The notes below the pieces were generated by a model. It made no database searches. It saw only the letters and a program-made list of their open reading frames with translations, and was not told the DNA's origin. A stretch of 64,000 nucleotides of DNA from Candidatus Cloacimonadota bacterium. Lineage in GTDB: Bacteria > Cloacimonadota > Cloacimonadia > G963667145. The stretch spans positions 64,001 to 128,000 of the forward strand of contig OY762940.1 in assembly GCA_963667255.1 (NCBI GenBank), read 5' to 3'. This document shows positions 1,265-63,090 of the stretch, one piece after another. The position numbers and the translations under genes were made by a program. Within the stretch, counting starts at the first letter, position 1. Each line of letters starts with the position of its first letter.

Positions 1265-1457
1265 TTAATTCCCCACAATCAATCCAACTGAAACCGTCAA
1301 CAAAAGCGATTATTTTCTCTTGACTCCAAATCATACATAATCTTGACTACTATCAAGAAAATAGCGAAATTGAAAATCTGTTTATTTGTTGTAGAACTCC
1401 TTTTTCCGTCAACAATTTTCAATAATCTTGGGAAAAATTAAAATAAGATTTGAATTT

Positions 1458-4400
1458 ATGATTATTAATAACCGTTACAAAGTCATCCGAGAGATGGACA
1501 AGACATTTTGGGCAACCATTTATCAGGTCAAAGACATCAGAAATGAAAAAATGTACGCTCTTAAACTCTTTTCTGGTCTGTCTTGCGAAGAGTTTTACTC
1601 CCGCTTTTCAGCCGAAGAGCTAACACTATTGACCAGAATAAAGCACCCCAACATCATCAGAACTTACGATTTTGGAGTTTTCAGCAATGCGATTTACTCC
1701 CTTTCCGCTTATTACGATTTGCCCTCATTAAATAAATTCTCTTTCATCAATATTGATGACATTTACAAGATTGTTAACGGGATTTGTTTGGGATTAAACG
1801 CTCTGCACAAGGAAGGCTTGGTTCACCAAAACTTGCGACTCAAAAATGTTTTATACGACCCCGAGACAATGCAAGCTAAAATACTGGATTGCAACTTCGT
1901 TAACACCGAAATCTCCAAACAAAAATTAATTGTGGAGTATCTGCCGTATTTGGCTCCAGAAGTTTATGACGGCGAACCGGCAATTGTCCAAAGCGACCTT
2001 TATTCACTGGGAGTCATCCTGTATTACATCGCCTGCGGACGATACCCATTCACCATACAACAAATCCAAAATCTTCAAAGCTCGGAAAGCTACTATCCGA
2101 TAACTCCGTCCAAACTTAATCCGCAAGTCACCCCAATGCTGGACTCGTTGATTTTGCGACTACTGAGCAGATTGCCGGAAGAGAGATTTGAAAATTCGTT
2201 AGACATACTGAAATACATAAACCAAAACCTCGGCACTGAAAAAGTGCAAATCCCCCAACACAACGAAGACAATTTCATTTTCGGAAAAGGCACTATCCAT
2301 ACCAAAAACTTGAGCCAACTTCTTGCAGATTTGCAGACGGTGCAACAACAAAAAAACGGCAGAATATTATATATCATCGGAGATTACGGCTCAGGGAAAT
2401 CCAATCTACTAAAACATTTCCGCTACTCCATCCTCAACGAAAATTACACCATTTTCCATTATAAATGTGACAAAGACAACTCTGACCCCTTGTTCACCAT
2501 CGTCAAAGAATGTTTGGACAAAAACAACGAAAACCAAATCGTCCAAAAATACGAAAATATTTCCGAGAAATACAAAGAGTTCCTCTATAAATCGGAGGAG
2601 CAAGCCCTGAAATTACCAGATTCTACAGAAAGTGTAAAAACCGATACGGAATTTGTGCAAGAGTTCTTCTACACTTTGGCAAAGCAAAAAACTTTAGTCA
2701 TAATAATTGAGAATATTGATTATCTTAAGTCCGATACAATTCAAGCACTTGACATCATTTCCAAAACTATCAGCACCCATAGCATATTTTTTGTGCTTAG
2801 TGGCAATCGACACAACAATATAGATACTGTGATGCATAAAAACAAAACTTTTCTTCCCAATCTCGACTATGAAAAAACAAAAAAATTCGTTTCCCGTATA
2901 ATCCCCGAGAAGGAGATAAAAAAACCACTTTTAAACCTTATTTTCGACAAATCAGCAGGTAACCCAGAATTTATCAAGAAAATTTTGCTCCAATTGTCCC
3001 AAGACCATTTACTGTATAACGAAAATATCCCAAAAGATTATCATCTCCCCTCAACCTTTAGTTCGGATGTGAAAGAAACAATCTTAAAATCACTAAATCA
3101 ACTTCCAAACTATGAATTAATAAAAAAGCTCTCATTTTTCTATGTGCCTCTTACCAGCCAAAGTATCCAAAAAATTTTAAAAATATCCCAAAAAGAAGTT
3201 TGCTTTCTCCTCTCCGACCTTTTGGAAACCCACATTTTTATCCACGATAACGAATCTTACAGTTTCAATTCCGAACAAAGCAAAATCTACCTCAGCCAAC
3301 AACTGACAAAGACTGAAAAAGAAGAGATAGCCAAAAATATTTTCGCCTACTACCAAGACAATCCCATAGAAAATCTCAAAACAGCAGAAGGCTTACTCAG
3401 ATACTCTTTCATTCTCAAAAACTTTCTGAAAGCAAGAGATTACAGCCTCATCTGTGCAAACTTGCACTTGGAAAACAAGCAATTCGAAGAAGCATACTTT
3501 CACTACTTCCAAATCGGAAAACTTCACTCTTTAAGACTATTGCCTCAAAAATATTTGCAGGAAGATTTGGAAACTCTGACGATAAATTCTAAACTAAACT
3601 CCATAAAAAGTTTGCAACTGCTATCTCAATTCCCAGAGAAGAAAACAGAGAAATTGAGAGCCATACTTCTCCAAGATTCGGGAAATATAAAATTAGCAGA
3701 AAACATATTTGATAATTTGAAACTCGACTCTGACAACATCGACAAGATTCTTCGCATTCGCCAAATTAGAAATAAACTGCTCCTCAATAAATTAGACCAA
3801 GCATCTGCTCTCTTGGATGCATTTTCGCCCGAATCTCTAAAGGATAAAATTTACAAAATAATAATGCAAGCGGAACTTCTGCTGAAACGCAAAAATCCGG
3901 ATAAAGCCACTACAATCCTCAACGAGTTCATAGAAAATCACAATTTGGACGAATTGAAAAATGATTACATTCTCAGCAAATTTTACGAAGTGCTCTCCAA
4001 CTGCCTCCACATAAAAAGGCATCTCGAAGAAGCCGAGAAATACTACTTAATTGCCCAACAAATTTTGAAAGAAACCGGATACACAATCGGGCTGTGCAAC
4101 AATTACATAGATTTAGGCGGTCTGTATTTGACTGCAGGGAATATTGACAAAGCCTTAGATTACCTGTCCCAAGCACAAAAGCTTTCGCAAAATTACGCAC
4201 AAGGGCAACTACGCGTTTCCTATAGCTACGGCAAAGCCTACATCAAGATGGGTGAATTTGAGAAAGCGATAGAGTATTTTGAAATTGCCAAAAAAATCTG
4301 CAAACAAACCAAAAACAATTTTCGCTACTCTATGTGCAAAATGCATATAGCCTCTTGCATAATGAAATGCAAGGGATACGGCGACTTTTACAATTTCGTT

Positions 4401-6740
4401 CTCAAATTCAAACCGGAGATTTTCGACTGGGAAATCAAAGATTTTGACCCACTTACAAGAGCGTTTTTCATTTACCTCATCTCCACCGAACAGATAGAAG
4501 GCTTGGAGCAAAAACTCGAACAAAACTCTCTTCTTTACCTGAAAAACAAAAACCATTATGAGATTTACTACAGCCTACTCGGACGCATCGCACATCTGAA
4601 AAAAGATTTCGATACAGCTATTTCTCACTTTGAAAAAGCCATAGAAATAGTGAAAGGAGTCCACAATTACGCACATTGCACCTTGCTCTACGACCTTAGC
4701 AAAGTCCATATCAGCAAAAAAGAGTTCGAAAAAGCCGCCATCATTTGCCAACAATTGGAAGAGATGAGTAAACAGTTCAACTTCAACTATTGGCACGAAC
4801 ACGCAAAATTGGAAAAGCTGAAAATAGATATTTTCGCCAATAAAATCAACTACAGACAAGCTTTTTTCATCGCAAAAACCTCTCTAACTTCTTGCCAAAC
4901 CAAAAATTACTTTATGCACACTTTGGAATATTACAAAATAATTATCCAAATTCTCGATTTCTACAATTTGAAAAAACAAGCCGAAAATTACATTTCCGAT
5001 TATAAAAAGCAAATTGAAAAAATCTGTCTCGGTCTTCCTCCCGAAGTGACTGCAAAAATCAAAAAATCTTACAAATTTTCCACCAAAAACTTTTCGGAAC
5101 TATTAGAATTCAAATTTCCGATAGACACGAAAATTAATATTGTTGCCGAGCAAAACGAGCTAATAAAAATCTTGGACATTCGCGACATCGAGAGAATTAA
5201 GTTCTTTGTTTGGAAGATGATAAAGAAATTTTTCGCTCCGTCAGGATTTTTGATTTTAATCGAGAACGAACAATTTTATGTCAAAAACATCGATAAAACC
5301 GAAATCGAAAGCTACGCAAAAATGATTTTAACTGAGAACACCACCAAAATTAGCAAAAAGTCGATTGTTGCTCCTCTGCAAATAGACAAAATCCCCAAAG
5401 GATTAATCGTTCTGAAAAACGAGACGGAGATACCATACAAACCCAGAGAAATCAATCTCTTCAAAAAATTGTTTCCCTACCTTTCCTATGTGATTTTCCA
5501 AATCATCAATGTGTCTCAAGTGTTAACGGAAAAAAAATTGCTCCAAAAAATGATGGAACTGAACATCATAGATTGCGTAGATGCCAAGCAAATAATGACG
5601 AATATTCTTGCTTTCCTCTTGGAAGTTACTGAAGCAAAAAGAGGGTTTTGGATAGAAAAAGATTACATCAACAGCACCGACGGCATAAACCTCTGGAAAC
5701 TGGGGCTTAGTGACCAAGGAGAGTATCTGCACACACAAAATTTCGTCTCCAATTATCTGATAGACTCCTTTGGCAAAAGAGAAAATTTTTACAAAATCTC
5801 CTCTCATTTGGTCTCGGATAAAAGCTTCGTCCAAACCTTGCAAAGATTCTCAATTTCCGAGTTTGAAATCTTCCTTTTTCCCATCGTCTTGGATAACAGA
5901 ATCAATTCCTTCTTGTATCTTGATACTTTCCAAGCCAAAAACGAAGCCACTAAATTACGCATCAATAAGGAATTTTTACTCACTTTCACCAACTATGTGG
6001 ACAAGATGCTCCAAACTTTCAAAGTTAACCAAATACTGAAAATCCAAATGGAGAAGCAAGAAAAAGTCACTCAAGCCAAGTCAACAGCCGTCAAGATTAT
6101 CAAAGACAGCTTCCTGATGCCCATCGAAGAGACAAAGTCCCTTCTGACTCAACCAGAACCTGACTTGGATAAGGCTTTGTTCAATCTTTCTTATCTGGAA
6201 CATTCGATTAACTCCTCTTTCTTTTTCAACAATCTCGACTCTCTGAAAACAAAATCCCATTTGAAATACAGCCTAAAAGAGTTGGCAGAAACCGTCCTGA
6301 ATAACTACAAATATATGTCAGAAAAATTGCAGATTAAATTTTCCATCGAAATAGATAACCTGAAAGTGAACAAAAAATCTTTCCTCATCATTCTGGACAA
6401 TATCATCCTCAATGCCCTGCAACACGCCCAAAGCTATATCGAAATCGGCTCGCGGAAATCGAAATTTAACAACGAGAGAATCGACAATCAAGAAAGTTTA
6501 ATTATCTACATCAATAACGACGGCGAAGTCCCGAATTTGGAAGATTTGCAAAACTCTTTCCAAAACCAGTTTTCGCAAAATTCCCGTCACTCCGCACACG
6601 AAAATAACAATCAAGAATTGGGCATCGGACTGCATCTTTGCAAAACCATTGTCGAAAAAATGAACGGAAAAATTTGGCCATTCACCCGAGAAAACATCAC
6701 GACCTGCTATGTCGCCTTGCCTATTGACAGAGAGAGCTAA
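1458..6740 (+). CDS. Large multidomain signalling protein: Ser/Thr kinase-like domain, P-loop NTPase, TPR region, putative GAF region, C-terminal HATPase_c
   Basis: ORF track 1428..6740 (TTG); ATG at 1458 preferred. Motifs YALK, HPNII, YLAPE, SDLYSLG; Walker A GDYGSGKS; helical TPR-like repeats; ILDNIILNALQH, NNDG and LGIGLHLCK boxes. Confidence 0.8.
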   Translation: MIINNRYKVIREMDKTFWATIYQVKDIRNEKMYALKLFSGLSCEEFYSRFSAEELTLLTRIKHPNIIRTYDFGVFSNAIYSLSAYYDLPSLNKFSFINIDDIYKIVNGICLGLNALHKEGLVHQNLRLKNVLYDPETMQAKILDCNFVNTEISKQKLIVEYLPYLAPEVYDGEPAIVQSDLYSLGVILYYIACGRYPFTIQQIQNLQSSESYYPITPSKLNPQVTPMLDSLILRLLSRLPEERFENSLDILKYINQNLGTEKVQIPQHNEDNFIFGKGTIHTKNLSQLLADLQTVQQQKNGRILYIIGDYGSGKSNLLKHFRYSILNENYTIFHYKCDKDNSDPLFTIVKECLDKNNENQIVQKYENISEKYKEFLYKSEEQALKLPDSTESVKTDTEFVQEFFYTLAKQKTLVIIIENIDYLKSDTIQALDIISKTISTHSIFFVLSGNRHNNIDTVMHKNKTFLPNLDYEKTKKFVSRIIPEKEIKKPLLNLIFDKSAGNPEFIKKILLQLSQDHLLYNENIPKDYHLPSTFSSDVKETILKSLNQLPNYELIKKLSFFYVPLTSQSIQKILKISQKEVCFLLSDLLETHIFIHDNESYSFNSEQSKIYLSQQLTKTEKEEIAKNIFAYYQDNPIENLKTAEGLLRYSFILKNFLKARDYSLICANLHLENKQFEEAYFHYFQIGKLHSLRLLPQKYLQEDLETLTINSKLNSIKSLQLLSQFPEKKTEKLRAILLQDSGNIKLAENIFDNLKLDSDNIDKILRIRQIRNKLLLNKLDQASALLDAFSPESLKDKIYKIIMQAELLLKRKNPDKATTILNEFIENHNLDELKNDYILSKFYEVLSNCLHIKRHLEEAEKYYLIAQQILKETGYTIGLCNNYIDLGGLYLTAGNIDKALDYLSQAQKLSQNYAQGQLRVSYSYGKAYIKMGEFEKAIEYFEIAKKICKQTKNNFRYSMCKMHIASCIMKCKGYGDFYNFVLKFKPEIFDWEIKDFDPLTRAFFIYLISTEQIEGLEQKLEQNSLLYLKNKNHYEIYYSLLGRIAHLKKDFDTAISHFEKAIEIVKGVHNYAHCTLLYDLSKVHISKKEFEKAAIICQQLEEMSKQFNFNYWHEHAKLEKLKIDIFANKINYRQAFFIAKTSLTSCQTKNYFMHTLEYYKIIIQILDFYNLKKQAENYISDYKKQIEKICLGLPPEVTAKIKKSYKFSTKNFSELLEFKFPIDTKINIVAEQNELIKILDIRDIERIKFFVWKMIKKFFAPSGFLILIENEQFYVKNIDKTEIESYAKMILTENTTKISKKSIVAPLQIDKIPKGLIVLKNETEIPYKPREINLFKKLFPYLSYVIFQIINVSQVLTEKKLLQKMMELNIIDCVDAKQIMTNILAFLLEVTEAKRGFWIEKDYINSTDGINLWKLGLSDQGEYLHTQNFVSNYLIDSFGKRENFYKISSHLVSDKSFVQTLQRFSISEFEIFLFPIVLDNRINSFLYLDTFQAKNEATKLRINKEFLLTFTNYVDKMLQTFKVNQILKIQMEKQEKVTQAKSTAVKIIKDSFLMPIEETKSLLTQPEPDLDKALFNLSYLEHSINSSFFFNNLDSLKTKSHLKYSLKELAETVLNNYKYMSEKLQIKFSIEIDNLKVNKKSFLIILDNIILNALQHAQSYIEIGSRKSKFNNERIDNQESLIIYINNDGEVPNLEDLQNSFQNQFSQNSRHSAHENNNQELGIGLHLCKTIVEKMNGKIWPFTRENITTCYVALPIDRES

Positions 6741-8616: not shown

Positions 8617-8650
8617 GAAGCACCTATTTTAATTTTAAAATAGGTGCTTC
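8617..8650. repeat. Perfect 16-bp inverted repeat between convergent genes; probable bidirectional terminator, homologous to the ends of the 23S insertions
   Basis: GAAGCACCTATTTTAA-TT-TTAAAATAGGTGCTTC. Confidence 0.85.
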
Positions 8651-38236: not shown

Positions 38237-39226
38237 TCAACTGTTTTTTAATACCCTTACCTCAAACTCTCCGTATCTCTTTTTTAGCTTGTTCAGCAAA
38301 TAGTTCCCATATCCGTAAATATAAGAAGTTTTGCTTTGCTCTATCTCCAAAACAGACAGTTCGCCCTCGTATTTTTTCAAAACTTCTTCGTAAAATTTTT
38401 CTATTTTAACCAGTTCGCCAAACGACGGATGATAAGGACCGGCAACCACTTGACTTGCATCAAGTCCAACATCGGAATGTAAACCGATTTTGATTACACG
38501 GATTTCTCTGGCTTCCAACTCGGCACACCAGTAGCTGCACAAATCCAATGCAGTTTGCAAATCAGGAGGAGAATATTCCCCCTCGTAATAGTAATCGGCT
38601 AATTTCGTCGATGCCAAAACAATCGTGGGATAAATCCGCACTTCTTCAGGTTGCAACTCCAAAGTTGTCTGCAAGGTCAAAGCCAAACTCTCGTCACTCC
38701 ACCCGAGCAAAAACGGCATCAATTGCACAGTCACTGCAAATCCCGCTTCTTTCAAAATCAGAATGGCTGCGATTGCCTGCTCACGATTATAACCTCTGCA
38801 AGAGCTTTTCAGCACCTCATCCGAAAAAGATTGGATGCCCAGTTCCACGGTAGCGACGCCATATTTTTTGAATAAATCCAAACTCTCTTGGCTCAAACAA
38901 TCGGGACGAGTTGACAAGCGAATAGTATCGCAATCTGCCAATCTTGACCTGGCAATCCTCAAATATTGTTCCTGCTCAGCCAAAGGCAAAGCCGAAAATG
39001 TTCCCCCAAAAAAAGCCACCTCTTTTTGAGAATCTTCGTTATTCAGAACAAAATTCTCAATCAGTTGAGAAATTTGAGAAAAATCCAAAGGCTGATTTTG
39101 GGCAGTAATAGTCTGTTGCTGACAATATATGCAGCGAAACGGACAGCCCGAAAAAGGCAAAAAAATAGGAAGCCTAATAGCTCCCTTTAATTTTCGTCTT
39201 CGTTTTTCTTTTTCAGTTTTCGCCAT
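38237..39226 (-). CDS. Radical SAM protein (Elp3/YhcC-like, rnc-associated)
   Basis: [36 protein letters not shown]. Confidence 0.85.
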
Positions 39227-39957
39227 ACATCTTTGGCAGCTTTCTGTTGAGCCGCCTTTTTATTCACTCCGGAACCTTTGCCGATAAATTTATCATCAAA
39301 ATAGACCTCAACAAAAAATCGCTTGTTGTGTTCCGGACCTTTTTCGTCCACAACCTTATATTCGGGCAACGCCCTAAACTTCCCTTGATAATACTCTTGA
39401 ACCAAACTCTTGTAATTTTGCAAGTAGTCTCTGGTAACCTCTTTCTCAAAATTTTTCAGACATTTCTTGTTAACGAACTTTCTCGCTTCCTCTATTCCAC
39501 CGTCCAAATAAATCGCACAGACCAAAGATTCCACAGCATCGGAGAGGATAGATTCCCTCTCTCTGCCACCACTTTTGCTCTCATCATCAGACAAAAAAAG
39601 CGTGTCGCCAAGTTGAAGACTCCTAGCAATATGAGCCAAATATTTCTCCGACTCCACTTTGGACTTCAGCTTCGACAAGTATCCCTCTTTCTTGGTTGGG
39701 TATTTATTAAATAGACACTCCGCCACCAAGAAACCCAAAATCGCATCGCCAAAAAACTCCATTCTCTCGAACGAGCCCAACTTGCTATCCGACTTTCGCA
39801 CATAGGACAAATGCGTCATAGCCACCTTCAAATAGTTAATATCTTGAAAACAGTATCCTATCTTCTTCTGCAAAATTATCGCTTTTTCACCCCATTCGTC
39901 ATCCAACTGGGGAAATTTGCCTTTACCCTTTCCAAAAAAACTGAGATTAAACTTCAC
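39187..39957 (-). CDS. rnc: Ribonuclease III
   Basis: ERMEFFGDA signature variant, DAVES..AIYLD, C-terminal dsRBD. Confidence 0.95.
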   Translation of the reverse strand: MKFNLSFFGKGKGKFPQLDDEWGEKAIILQKKIGYCFQDINYLKVAMTHLSYVRKSDSKLGSFERMEFFGDAILGFLVAECLFNKYPTKKEGYLSKLKSKVESEKYLAHIARSLQLGDTLFLSDDESKSGGRERESILSDAVESLVCAIYLDGGIEEARKFVNKKCLKNFEKEVTRDYLQNYKSLVQEYYQGKFRALPEYKVVDEKGPEHNKRFFVEVYFDDKFIGKGSGVNKKAAQQKAAKDVWRKLKKKNEDEN

Positions 39958-59130: not shown

Positions 59131-59297
59131 CAAAGAGCTTTAAACAAATCGTTATGATAAAAAAGTTGGTGAGATATTAAAAAGAAAAAAATAAGCCAAT
59201 GGAACAATTAGTATCACTCGGCTGAGAGCATTACTACTCTTACACCTGTGACCTATCAACGTTGTAGTCTCCAACGGTTCTCATAGGGAAATCTATT

Positions 59298-59339
<42 letters not shown>

Positions 59340-59456
59340 TTCCAAACTTAGCTACTCGGCAATGCAGCTGACGCCACAACCGATACACCAGAGGTTTGTT
59401 CACACCGGTCCTCTCGTACTAGATGCAAATCCTCTCAAATTTCCTACTCCCACGAA

Positions 59457-59503
<47 letters not shown>

Positions 59504-59526
59504 ACTCTTTAATTGGCGAACAGCCA

Positions 59527-59557
<31 letters not shown>

Positions 59558-59613
59558 AGTTGAGCCGACATCGAGGTGCCAAACACCGCCGTCGATATGA
59601 ACTCTTAGGCGGT

Positions 59614-59646
<33 letters not shown>

Positions 59647-59804
59647 TTTGAGCAACGGCCCTTCCATACAGAGCCGCCGGATCACTAAGACCTGCTTTCG
59701 CATCTGCTCGACCCGTCAGTCTCGCAGTTAAGCTCCCTTATACCTTTATGCTCTTCGATTGATTGCCGACCAATCTGAGGGAACCTTTGTAAGCCTCCGT
59801 TACT

Positions 59805-59837
<33 letters not shown>

Positions 59838-60088
59838 ACCAGACAATGTCTGCTAGTAGGGTAACTACTAGCGTTAGTGATTCAACAACATAAGGGTGGT
59901 ATTTCAAGGTTGACTCCACGGCGACTAGCGTCACCGCTTCAAAATCTCCCACCTATCCTACACATACCTCATCAAATCACAATGTCAAGCTATAGTAAAG
60001 GTTCACGGGGTCTTTCCGTCCGTTCGCGGGTAGGCGGCATCTTCACCGCCACTACAATTTCACCGAGATCCTGGTTGAGACAGTATTC

Positions 60089-60185
<97 letters not shown>

Positions 60186-60881
60186 ACTCAAGAGCTTGCA
60201 CTCTCTCACTTAACCTTCCGGCACCGGGCAGGTGTCAGTCTATATACTTTCTTTTGCAAGTTTGCATAGACCTGTGTTTTTGATAAACAGTCGCTTGAAT
60301 CTTTTCACTGCGGCCGGGGGCATGCTCATACCGCGAAGGTAATCACTTCCCCCGGCACCCCTTCTCCCGAAGTTACGGGGTCAATATGCCGAGTTCCTTA
60401 ACCAGAATTCTCTCGAACACCTTAGGATACTCTCCTCACCCACCTGAGTCGGTTTGGGGTACGGTCTGTTATGACATAAACGCTTAGAAGTTATTTCTTG
60501 GCAGCACTATAGGTGGACTTTGCGAGCATAAGCTCTCGTCCTGTGTCTCAGAATATTGCTCGGCGGATTTGCCAACCGAACTTCTTACGCACATTCAACA
60601 CCACTTTCAGCCGGTGTCTCCACTGCAACGCCGCGTCACTCCATCACTTCCCATAACAGGTTCTGGAATATTAACCAGATTCCCATCAGCTACCCTGGAA
60701 ACCAGACTCGCCTTAGGGGCCGACTAACCCTGAGCAGATTTTCTTTACTCAGGAAACCTTGGGTTTTCGGTGTGCGGACTTCTCATCCGCATTATCGCTA
60801 CTCATGCTAGCATTCTCTCTTGTAGCCACTCCAGCATCTCTTACAAGACACCTTCAACGCCGACTACAATGCTCTCCTACC

Positions 60882-61190
60882 CCAAGCACCTATTTTTAAC
60901 TTCAAACTTTATCAGAATTTTCAACTCTCTTTAATAAATGTCTTTTAGAATTGCCATTCTGTTTCAGCATTCTTTCTCTTTTTCTCGCATCACTTTCCGA
61001 TAAATAAGCTTCATAATATACAAGCTTCCAATTACCAAAACTTGTATACTCACTCTTACCACTCAAATGCTCAGAAATCCGTCATTTTAAATCCTTGGTG
61101 TAACCAATATAATGTAAGTTTCTATTTATTTCAGTAAATAGACATCATACATAGCTACTCCTTAATTCAAAATTAAAAATAGGTGCTTGG
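60882..61190 (-). mobile_element. 309-bp intervening sequence at 23S helix 45 with ~20-bp terminal inverted repeats
   Basis: AT-rich insert between conserved ACCGAAATCGCGG and GGTAGGAGAGCATT; ends CCAAGCACCTATTTTTAA / TTAAAAATAGGTGCTTGG. Confidence 0.9.
60902..61152 (-). pseudogene. Small GIY-YIG nuclease gene, disrupted (frameshift plus internal TGA), inside the IVS
   Basis: AAGGAG RBS; MYDVYLLK / NRNLHYIGYTKDLK*RISEHLSGKSEYTSFGNWKLVYYEAYLSESDARKRERMLKQNGNSKRHLLKRVENSDKV*. Confidence 0.85.
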
Positions 61191-61867
61191 CCGCGATTTC
61201 GGTATTATACTTATCAGTCCCGATCATCTTCGGTGCATTACCACTTAACCAGTGAGCTATTACGCACTCTTTAAATGATAGCTGCTTCTAAGCTAACATC
61301 CTGGCTGTCTTTGCAATAAAACATCCTTTCTCACTAAGTATAAATTTAGGGACCTTAATCGTCGGTTAGGGATCTTTCCCTCTCGCCCATGGAGCTTATC
61401 CCCCACAGACTGTCTCCCTTACATCAAATTACGGTATTCGGAGTTTATTAAGGTTCGGTAGGCTTGTAGGCCCCCTAGCCTAATTAGTGCTCTACCCCCG
61501 CAATTCTAATAAGAGGCACTGCCTAAACAGTTTTCGGAGAGAACCAGATATCGCCCGGTTTGATTGGCCTTTCACCCCTACCAACAGCTCATCCACTGAT
61601 TTTTCAACATCAGTTGGTTCGGTCCTCCATTTGGTTTTACCCAAACTTCAACCTGGCCATAGGTAGATCACCGGGTTTCGGGTCTAATCCTGCCAACTAA
61701 ACGCGCTATTAACACTCGCTTTCGCTTCGGCTCCATCACTTTATGATTTAACCTTGCTGACAAAATTAACTCGCTAGCTCATTATACAAAAGGCACGCCA
61801 TCGCCCGACAAGCAGGCTCTGACTGATTATAAACATACGGTTTCAGATACTATTTCACTCCCCTTCC

Positions 61868-61915
<48 letters not shown>

Positions 61916-62100
61916 AAAATGTATTTAGCCTTACCGGATGGTCCCGGCAGATTCAGACAGGGTTTCACGTGCCCCGCCCTACTTGGGATACTGCTACAGC
62001 AGATACAGAATTTCGTCTACAGGAGTTTCACCTTCTTCGCTCCAGCTTTCCAGCTAAGTTCGACTATCCTCTATCAGTCCGATATCGCAGTCCCGCAACC

Positions 62101-62179
62101 CCAAGCACCTATTTTTAACTCGTTTCTATTCTCTAATTCTGTTTGCAATTCCTTCTCAGAATTAAAAATAGGTGCTTGG
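62101..62179 (-). mobile_element. 79-bp ORF-less 23S insertion with the same inverted ends as the helix-45 IVS
   Basis: Lies just 3' of AGTAGTGGCGAGCGAACGGGAAAGAGCCTAAA; both 20-nt arms identical to those of 60882..61190. Confidence 0.8.
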
Positions 62180-62587
62180 TTTAGGCTCTTTCCCGTTCGC
62201 TCGCCACTACTTAGGAAATCATTATTTATTTTCTTTTCCTGCGGTTACCTTAGATGTTTCAATTCACCGCGTATGCCTCAAGTAAAGTACTTGATAGTCA
62301 GGTATAACCCTGACTGGGTTGCCCCATTCGGAAATTCCCGGGTCAAAGCTTGCTTACAGCTATCCGAGACTTATCGCAGCAAACCACGTCCTTCTTCGCC
62401 ATTTTTGCGCCAAGGCATTCACCGTATGCCCTTTCTACTTAATTTTTCGATTCTCTTTAATAATCTCACCACTTCTATAAAACTTCTTCTTAAAAGAACT
62501 ATAAAATAAATTACTAGCCCAAAAATTGAGCCATTAATTTATTCTTTATACTCATCAATCAAATCGCTCATCCATCACAAAAAAAAA

Positions 62588-62742: not shown

Positions 62743-63090
62743 CTAATTACTCTTAGATTTTTTAACTATTGTGGTCAGAAGTTTAATTATCTCTATCAAA
62801 TCACATTTGAGGCTATCAATTTCATCCTCTGTCAAATAAGCATCTGCCAACAAATCCAGCCAGTATTCTGTTTCTCCAGCCTCTTTGAGAGCTATTGACA
62901 GTTTTGATATGAAATCTTTTTTGCTTTGAGCGTTCTGACTTTCTCTGATATTAGCACCTATCGAAGTACCGCTTCTTAAAATCTGTTTCGAAAGCACATA
63001 CTCATTTTTGACAGCTGTCAGATGCCGATAAAACCTAACAATTCGCTTTGCAAACTGAAAAGCCTTGTCATAAACAATATTATCTTTCAT
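62743..63090 (-). CDS. Four-helix-bundle protein (23S rRNA intervening-sequence protein/TIGR02436-like) in the 16S-23S spacer
   Basis: LSKQILRSGTSIGANIRE, DFISKLSIALKEAGETEYWL. Confidence 0.92.
   Translation of the reverse strand: MKDNIVYDKAFQFAKRIVRFYRHLTAVKNEYVLSKQILRSGTSIGANIRESQNAQSKKDFISKLSIALKEAGETEYWLDLLADAYLTEDEIDSLKCDLIEIIKLLTTIVKKSKSN

Follow-up and report, generated by a model that had tools for sequence, protein, structure and literature searches.

The origin of the intervening sequences found in bacterial rRNA is stated to be unclear in the available text of two accounts (PMC4990558; PMC8708148). The question dates to 1990, and remnants of transposition and a lost mobility gene have been proposed, with no candidate enzyme named in the accessible part of the former account (PMC4990558). 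For CPR bacteria, rRNA inserts that are not introns and contain GIY-YIG genes have been published: Tsurumaki et al. 2024 (PMC11270868) report, in the sections available, 30 GIY-YIG ORFs in CPR rRNA inserts, 15 in 16S and 15 in 23S, all of them non-intron and scattered, and judge them to lie outside homing-type spread.

The window analysed here is a stretch of 64,000 nucleotides from a Candidatus Cloacimonadota bacterium (assembly GCA_963667255.1, contig OY762940.1, positions 64,001 to 128,000 of the forward strand), whose genome (G000) comprises 1.59 Mb in one contig with two rRNA operons. The 23S rRNA gene of the window (59187–62444, minus strand; Rfam RF02541, 2721 bits) carries in place of helix 45 a full-length cassette of 309 nt in a broken allelic form (60882–61190, minus strand). 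The cassette is bounded by a terminal inverted repeat, of which the 5' arm (61170–61190, minus strand) begins CCAAGCACCTATTTTT and the 3' arm (60882–60902, minus strand) includes the final base of the ORF stop codon; the arms are 21 nt long and 95% complementary. The RNA fold of 60870–61205 has a z of −7.9, with 0 of 100 shuffles equally stable, and GC content is ~31–39% over the insert versus 42–54% in neighbouring rRNA (200-nt bins). The insert aligns to positions 1164–1185 of E. coli 23S, with the flanks at 1163 and 1186, an interval that we take to be helix 45. The initial annotation had described a 309-bp AT-rich insert at the helix-45 position with a stem of ~20 bp, and the arms, base composition and E. 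coli mapping all agree with this description. As is characteristic of 23S intervening sequences, the insert sits at a variable helix and is closed by a terminal stem. In relatives the empty site at helix 45 is a hairpin of 24–27 nt, and a contig from one relative's run (X7) contains the empty-site joint 60881/61191 with 24 different letters in between.

Directly inside the predicted stem, sequence and fold place an AAGGAG motif resembling a ribosome-binding site (61158–61163, minus strand), followed by an ATG at 61152, both where the initial annotation had put them. The sense-strand promoter consensus gave one match, which is at chance level (2 found, 1.5 expected), and a promoter belonging to the cassette gene was therefore rejected. 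Only 38 + 20 nt lie outside the ORF, and a group I or group II intron with a homing endonuclease was rejected, as no Rfam intron model matched in either rRNA operon. The RNase III gene rnc, also reported for this window, was located at 39190–39957 (minus strand; PF14622, PF00636, PF00035); it is separate from the element and encodes a candidate excising enzyme. Excision of intervening sequences by RNase III proceeds without religation and leaves the 23S rRNA in fragments. In the RNA runs, all of them represented by contigs, the share of the window's words was small (0.13–0.22, at most 0.22) and carries no weight for or against such fragmentation.

The gene within the window cassette is a GIY-YIG pseudogene (60902–61152, minus strand) with a Tyr3 substitution, a 4-nt deletion and a TGA at codon 25 (61084–61082). 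The frameshift near 61128 and the in-frame TGA had been recognized from the outset; at the former, a tandem pair of 4-nt units has been reduced to a single unit, and the third lesion is a T>G change at 61146 that alters the invariant Tyr3. The other rrn copy, in the second operon, holds an intact 84-aa allele (G000:C1:992162–992416; L001:6163–6417) in a cassette of 313 nt with an open 84-codon frame, and the two alleles differ by one 4-nt unit and two substitutions. The initial annotation was thus right about the broken copy and overlooked the intact second copy, as well as the gene-less relatives described below. Contigs from the public sequencing runs X1 and X2 show 0 differences from the broken allele across the insert, and the intact allele is present in a contig of X3, which comes from the same sample as X2; this support consists of contigs from at most three samples, of which X1 may be the source sample. 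Since both alleles occur in run contigs, the lesions are real, and an assembly artefact can be rejected because X1 and X2 carry the insert exactly. Decoding of TGA as a sense codon was also rejected, as the sister allele has CGA at this position and the TGA is accompanied by the frameshift. The window insert is a decayed copy of a ~300-base element with one GIY-YIG gene between inverted arms.

Both alleles match the Pfam GIY-YIG model (PF01541, cut-off 22.6), the intact one with 60.4 bits and the broken one, when its TGA codon is translated as X, with 50.2 bits, so that the GIY-YIG pattern first noticed in the repaired peptide was borne out. From 819 candidate sequences 813 matched, and the best 120 are mostly 80–105 residues long. 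Residues Tyr3, Tyr5, Tyr16, Gly18, Arg26, His30 and Glu61 are invariant in 44 of 44 close homologs; the roles of the Arg and Glu in the GIY-YIG core are taken from the available text of PMC1564403. The structure model of the 84-aa protein has a pLDDT of 91.5. Its top structural match, and the sole one below 0.001, is UPF0213 protein BH0048 (E 6e-4); Slx1 structures occupy ranks 2–9 with weak E values of 0.01–0.05, above I-TevI and UvrC. The sequence search agrees with the structural search, its first match being 1zg2 (E 3e-6). On these grounds the protein is a predicted nuclease that consists of a minimal Slx1/UPF0213-like GIY-YIG domain. The group I intron endonuclease model TIGR01453 scores 21.9 bits against a cut-off of 56.05, and the 84 residues contain no DNA-binding extension or strand-transfer domain. 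Family matches are limited to the GIY-YIG clan type, with no DDE, HUH or recombinase transposase among them, and the cassette ORF belongs to PF01541 and not to PF05635, the four-helix bundle of S23/IVP-coding inserts. A search of 50,697 phage records (E 1e-5) gave no match, and a phage origin was rejected.

Against the copy in the related genome G001, the cassette gene has a dN of 0.089 and a dS of 1.49 (dN/dS ~0.06; Fisher p 9e-16), the dS being 1.25 with a slightly different alignment. The low dN relative to dS indicates that the gene is conserved as a protein under purifying selection. Between the same genomes, dS is 0.57–1.2 for five host ORFs in coding frame and 1.1–1.2 for a gene of the 16S-23S spacer; the host range set against the 1.25–1.49 of the cassette gene is 0.79–1.24. 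The similar dS of cassette and host genes indicates that in this genome and in G001 the helix-45 cassette has descended vertically, and a recent horizontal arrival at this helix is accordingly unsupported.

The spacer gene just mentioned encodes a 115-aa 23S_rRNA_IVP protein, a four-helix bundle (62743–63090, minus strand; PF05635, 103 bits), and lies between tRNA-Ile and tRNA-Ala in both operons, the second copy being at G000:C1 ~990085–990438. It has short A/T-rich repeats on either side and a dN/dS of ~0.06–0.07 versus G001. The gene for the classic intervening-sequence protein is here located in the spacer and not in 23S. A second, unrelated GIY-YIG gene of ~127 aa is found upstream of both rRNA operons and has been duplicated with them (G000:C1:987630–987857, plus strand, and 129315–129542, minus strand, just outside the window); it is followed by two palindromes. 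Elsewhere in the window, positions 1428–6740 (plus strand) encode a 1770-aa protein with protein kinase and TPR regions.

The arms of the cassette recur around gene-less inserts of 70–82 nt at helices 10, 15 and 25 of 23S and at P12 of RNase P RNA. In the window, a 79-nt insert of this type occupies the helix-15 position (62101–62179, minus strand; E. coli ~272; z = −7.2). Helix 10 (62278–62293, minus strand) and the tip of helix 25 (61803–61817, minus strand) are empty there, at 16 and 15 nt, whereas the second operon has same-arm inserts of 82 and ~80 nt at these places, so that this operon is filled at helices 10, 15, 25 and 45 and the window operon at 15 and 45 only. For the second operon, the inserts at helices 10 and 25 are known from the assembly, and G001 is filled at the same two junctions. 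The exact 15-nt arm occurs 10 times in the genome, always within the two 23S genes; allowing up to two mismatches, paired arms are also found at helix 25, in RNase P RNA and at window positions 8617–8650. The latter is an arms-only, terminator-like hairpin between convergent genes (no strand assigned; z = −10.2), in which 13 of 15 letters equal the arm. The RNase P RNA insert is a 70-nt hairpin (G000:C1:1142458–1142527; L053); similar P12 hairpins are present in G001 and G005, and P12 of G002 consists of the two arms alone.

Filled and empty sites were compared over 12 operons from six genomes of the same genus. One operon of G001 is without inserts and the other has three; G002 has the nuclease cassette in one operon, at helix 15 and not at helix 45, where the gene resides in G000 and G001. 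In both G001 and G002 another operon is either empty at the cassette site or has a gene-less insert there, and at each filled site the terminal stem-loop is replaced at identical junctions. The interiors of the three short rRNA inserts of the present genome are 67–84% identical to each other and 31–52% identical to inserts from other genomes, with 42% and 52% for those that G001 has at the same sites. This greater likeness within than between genomes argues for copying between different helices after the G000 and G001 lineages split, which, judged from the sequences, could have been either fresh insertion or conversion between arms. Other families of the class have mostly short helices at these sites (18 23S loci viewed, in a partial survey in which 30 of the 51 class genomes searched gave no 23S match), suggesting that the filled state is derived.

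The gene-less inserts are for the most part without significant similarity to the cassette and were rejected as simple internal deletions of it; the helix-15 insert of this genome shows the sole borderline similarity to the full cassette. The arm sequence is absent from the pre-16S and pre-23S processing stems, and derivation of the arms from these host RNase III substrates was rejected because the leader stems differ in sequence. A hammerhead-like nature of the short inserts was dropped, as Rfam gave no match and the hammerhead core does not fit them. In G002 an intergenic arm-bounded insert is found in a structured region resembling a leader (L043:1500–1640), next to another hairpin of the arm type, with no Rfam match at gathering score. 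A ~100-nt gene-less insert with arms of the family type is present at 23S helix 10 in another family of the class (L235, genome G022). At helix 45 of G003 and G005 (L034, L038, L035, L039), the native helix is short and similar to the element arms, as if it might be the remnant of a collapsed cassette.

A wider family was delineated from 160 loci, namely the best 80 of at least 585 metagenome matches and the best 80 of at least 503 genome matches, with some near-duplicates among them. Among these listed matches, rRNA genes (16S or 23S) harbour 65 of the 160, none of them antisense, and 63 are at ten helices: 10, 15, 25, 45, 63, 68 and 98 of 23S and 6, 9-10 and 17 of 16S, where the coordinates are computed and the helix names are those that we take to apply. 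Terminal inverted repeats were detected in 61 of the 65 listed rRNA loci, all 61 being 280–338 nt in length, and in 124 of the 160 listed loci overall, compared with 7 of 441 control stretches; 20 of the 36 listed loci with no detected repeat are beside tRNAs. The arms have in common the motif CC(N)RCACY together with an A/T tract, and 46 of the 61 among the matches listed fit the pattern used. Like MITEs, the family thus has terminal inverted repeats common to coding and non-coding copies. An RBS-like motif, by the pattern used, precedes only 34 of the 65 listed rRNA-embedded genes. Named hosts among the matches listed are Patescibacteria, Gammaproteobacteria, Spirochaetota, Verrucomicrobiota, Thermodesulfobacteriota and Cloacimonadota, the closest named homologs being from Ca. 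Cloacimonadota.

Homologs confined to the one site would have weakened the mobility proposed in the initial annotation; they were found at the ten rRNA helices and, among the matches listed, in RNase P RNA, at tRNA 5' ends and in intergenic DNA. At six listed loci a single 23S gene contains a pair of different cassettes, and a cassette from helix 63 is 77–78% identical to two intergenic cassettes. RNase P RNA genes contain or adjoin 3 of 20 non-rRNA loci scanned, and full nuclease cassettes in them or at their edges are Rfam-confirmed for L164, L200 and L212 and identified by motif only for L096, L097 and L121. Among the matches listed, 6 of 7 tRNA-flanking units have direct repeats of 7–11 nt, against a mean of 0.34 and a maximum of 3.5 in shuffles; repeats of at least 6 nt flank 2 of the 39 other units and 0 of the 55 rRNA units (chance expectation 0.58). 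In a poorly resolved protein tree (157 rows after dropping 6 near-duplicates of 163; 85 columns), site labels change 28 times among 63 rows versus 43 times when shuffled (minimum 38), and, as far as this weak tree goes, kin are often at the same site, yet site switches are many. More distant stand-alone GIY-YIG genes flanked by other inverted repeats occur outside rRNA (L023, L024, L007, L009, L010, L027), their sequences suggesting further subfamilies.

The best reading of these observations is a minimal hairpin-targeting mobile element with non-autonomous partners. That a ~300-base element replaces the end of an exposed RNA helix, moving by means of its own predicted nuclease, seems to us somewhat more probable than the alternatives taken together. 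In the proposed mechanism the gene would be read from the host rRNA transcript, and the protein, an Slx1-like nickase, would cut both DNA hairpins that carry the arm motif, once extruded, and target hairpins at their foot. Repair by the host would next overwrite the target hairpin with the cassette or a gene-less partner, a step that would give rise to short duplications at tRNA ends but not at rRNA helices. The arms would become the base of a new RNA helix from which RNase III trims the loop, as the available account describes for Coxiella (PMC4990558), and such trimming would allow the ribosome to tolerate the insert. The same cutting could bias conversion between the two operons and so keep the gene from loss. 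The choice of exposed helices and the exact junctions may be explicable by selection alone. Several points speak against a self-moving element: vertical inheritance at helix 45, clustering of sites on the tree, the lack of duplications at rRNA sites, homologs with no repeats, the lack of any additional domain, gene-less interiors that are mostly not recognisable as deleted cassettes, the RBS-like motif at only 34 of the 65 listed rRNA-embedded genes, and the judgement of PMC11270868 on the CPR inserts. The non-intron, hairpin-bounded selfish element first envisaged stands as regards the GIY-YIG match, the insert in run contigs, the many sites and the failure of intron models; it is qualified by its vertical descent at helix 45 and by the earlier publication of GIY-YIG inserts in CPR bacteria, and its nuclease activity and removal by RNase III are predictions.

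An unlikely alternative, in our estimate, is that the inserts are passive intervening sequences, the arm hairpins having spread by host recombination and horizontal transfer of rRNA segments, with the nuclease gene a passenger that is retained because it serves the host, for instance in repair or defence. The vertical descent at helix 45 and the housekeeping-like dN/dS would fit such a history, as would the prediction, in the available text of PMC1564403, that stand-alone Slx1-like proteins act in repair. Common arms would by themselves permit conversion between filled sites, and gene-less inserts persist in G003, G004 and G005, where this query found no close homolog. Passive spread leaves unexplained, however, the filling of empty sites with unrelated flanks, the duplications at tRNA ends, the pairs of cassettes in single genes, and an arm motif shared across phyla together with the narrow 280–338-nt size range among the matches listed; moreover, one of the two copies here has decayed through three lesions.

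Site-specific homing with no intron appears improbable. In this scenario the other rRNA operon, or an incoming one, would be cut wherever the site of the nuclease gene is empty, and repair would copy the insert there, with new sites being rare. Such homing would account for the coexistence of filled and empty operons in G001 and G002, for long persistence under purifying selection, for the clustering of sites on the protein tree and for the absence of duplications at rRNA sites. The targets, however, are variable helix tips of unrelated sequence, at least 28 site changes are needed among 63 rows, gene-less copies at other helices have the same arms, and the protein falls short of the group I intron endonuclease model (21.9 versus 56.05) and lacks a DNA-binding extension. 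Finally, the protein could conceivably act on RNA, binding or cutting the arm hairpin in the transcript as a private processing enzyme while the DNA spreads by other means. The targets are structured RNA genes, 65 of the 65 rRNA-embedded genes among the matches listed are in transcript sense, and a link to RNA is suggested for some Slx1-like domains in the accessible part of PMC1564403. Yet the GIY-YIG enzymes treated in that same part cut DNA, the host already has RNase III, and the unit travels with no reverse transcriptase and has intergenic copies, so that we consider a role in RNA processing very improbable. A minimal hairpin-targeting mobile element accordingly remains our preferred reading.

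To the question of how intervening sequences arise, this genome offers a candidate enzyme, with an intact gene, a decayed sister copy, gene-less versions at four further helices and two filled/empty sites, and a single small protein with a handful of oligonucleotides would suffice to check the idea. Should the nuclease drive movement, the element would be a mobile one far below known IS size, with a hairpin-replacement mechanism. More broadly, and tentatively, since we would put it at just under an even chance, there may be a new class of prokaryotic mobile DNA of ~300 bases, having an 84-residue Slx1-like nuclease as its sole protein, which swaps its own and gene-less same-arm hairpins for the native stem-loops of genes for rRNA, RNase P RNA and tRNA; some of the intervening sequences in bacterial rRNA would then be its non-autonomous offspring. 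Such inserts skew rRNA-based trees and conceal genes within rRNA features.

Insertion sequences with their MITEs, and REP/RAYT systems, combine terminal inverted repeats with coding and non-coding members and make short duplications at some targets. The element described here resembles them in its terminal repeats, its coding and non-coding copies and the short direct repeats at some sites; it differs in lacking a DDE, HUH or recombinase enzyme, in its total size of ~300 nt, and in that at rRNA sites a hairpin is replaced and not added. With I-TevI-type GIY-YIG homing endonucleases of group I introns it has in common the fold, the location of a selfish gene within an rRNA gene and a cycle of gain and decay, but it has no ribozyme and no DNA-binding domain, is Slx1-like and uses many unrelated target sites. 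The minimal single-domain nuclease fold is that of the stand-alone Slx1-like/UPF0213 proteins (PDB 1zg2, 1ywl; PMC1564403), which the available text describes as predicted repair proteins and not as cargo of hairpin inserts.

The classical 23S intervening sequences of Salmonella, Leptospira and Coxiella (helix 45), as far as the accessible accounts go (PMC4990558; PMC8708148), share with this element the helix 45/25 positions, a long stem of terminal repeats, A+T-richness, an ORF in rRNA sense, sporadic occurrence and decay of the ORF. Their ORF encodes a four-helix-bundle S23 protein, whereas a predicted nuclease is encoded here; in the present genome the same arms are found in intergenic DNA and RNase P RNA as well, and excision is a candidate process. 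In the literature searched, mostly outside subscription journals, no description was found of a GIY-YIG mobile family with shared arms. The closest counterparts are the CPR inserts (PMC11270868), which in the sections available likewise contain GIY-YIG genes, lack similarity to introns and are scattered over several variable sites; as many of our listed loci are from Patescibacteria, they probably belong to the same family. Terminal repeats, a shared arm motif, gene-less partners and RNase P or tRNA sites do not feature in those sections, and in comparison the present host is non-CPR and has filled and empty alleles in one genome. What is new here is a single-contig genome outside the CPR that has both an intact and a broken allele as well as filled and empty sites, together with an estimate of selection and copying between helices within a genome.
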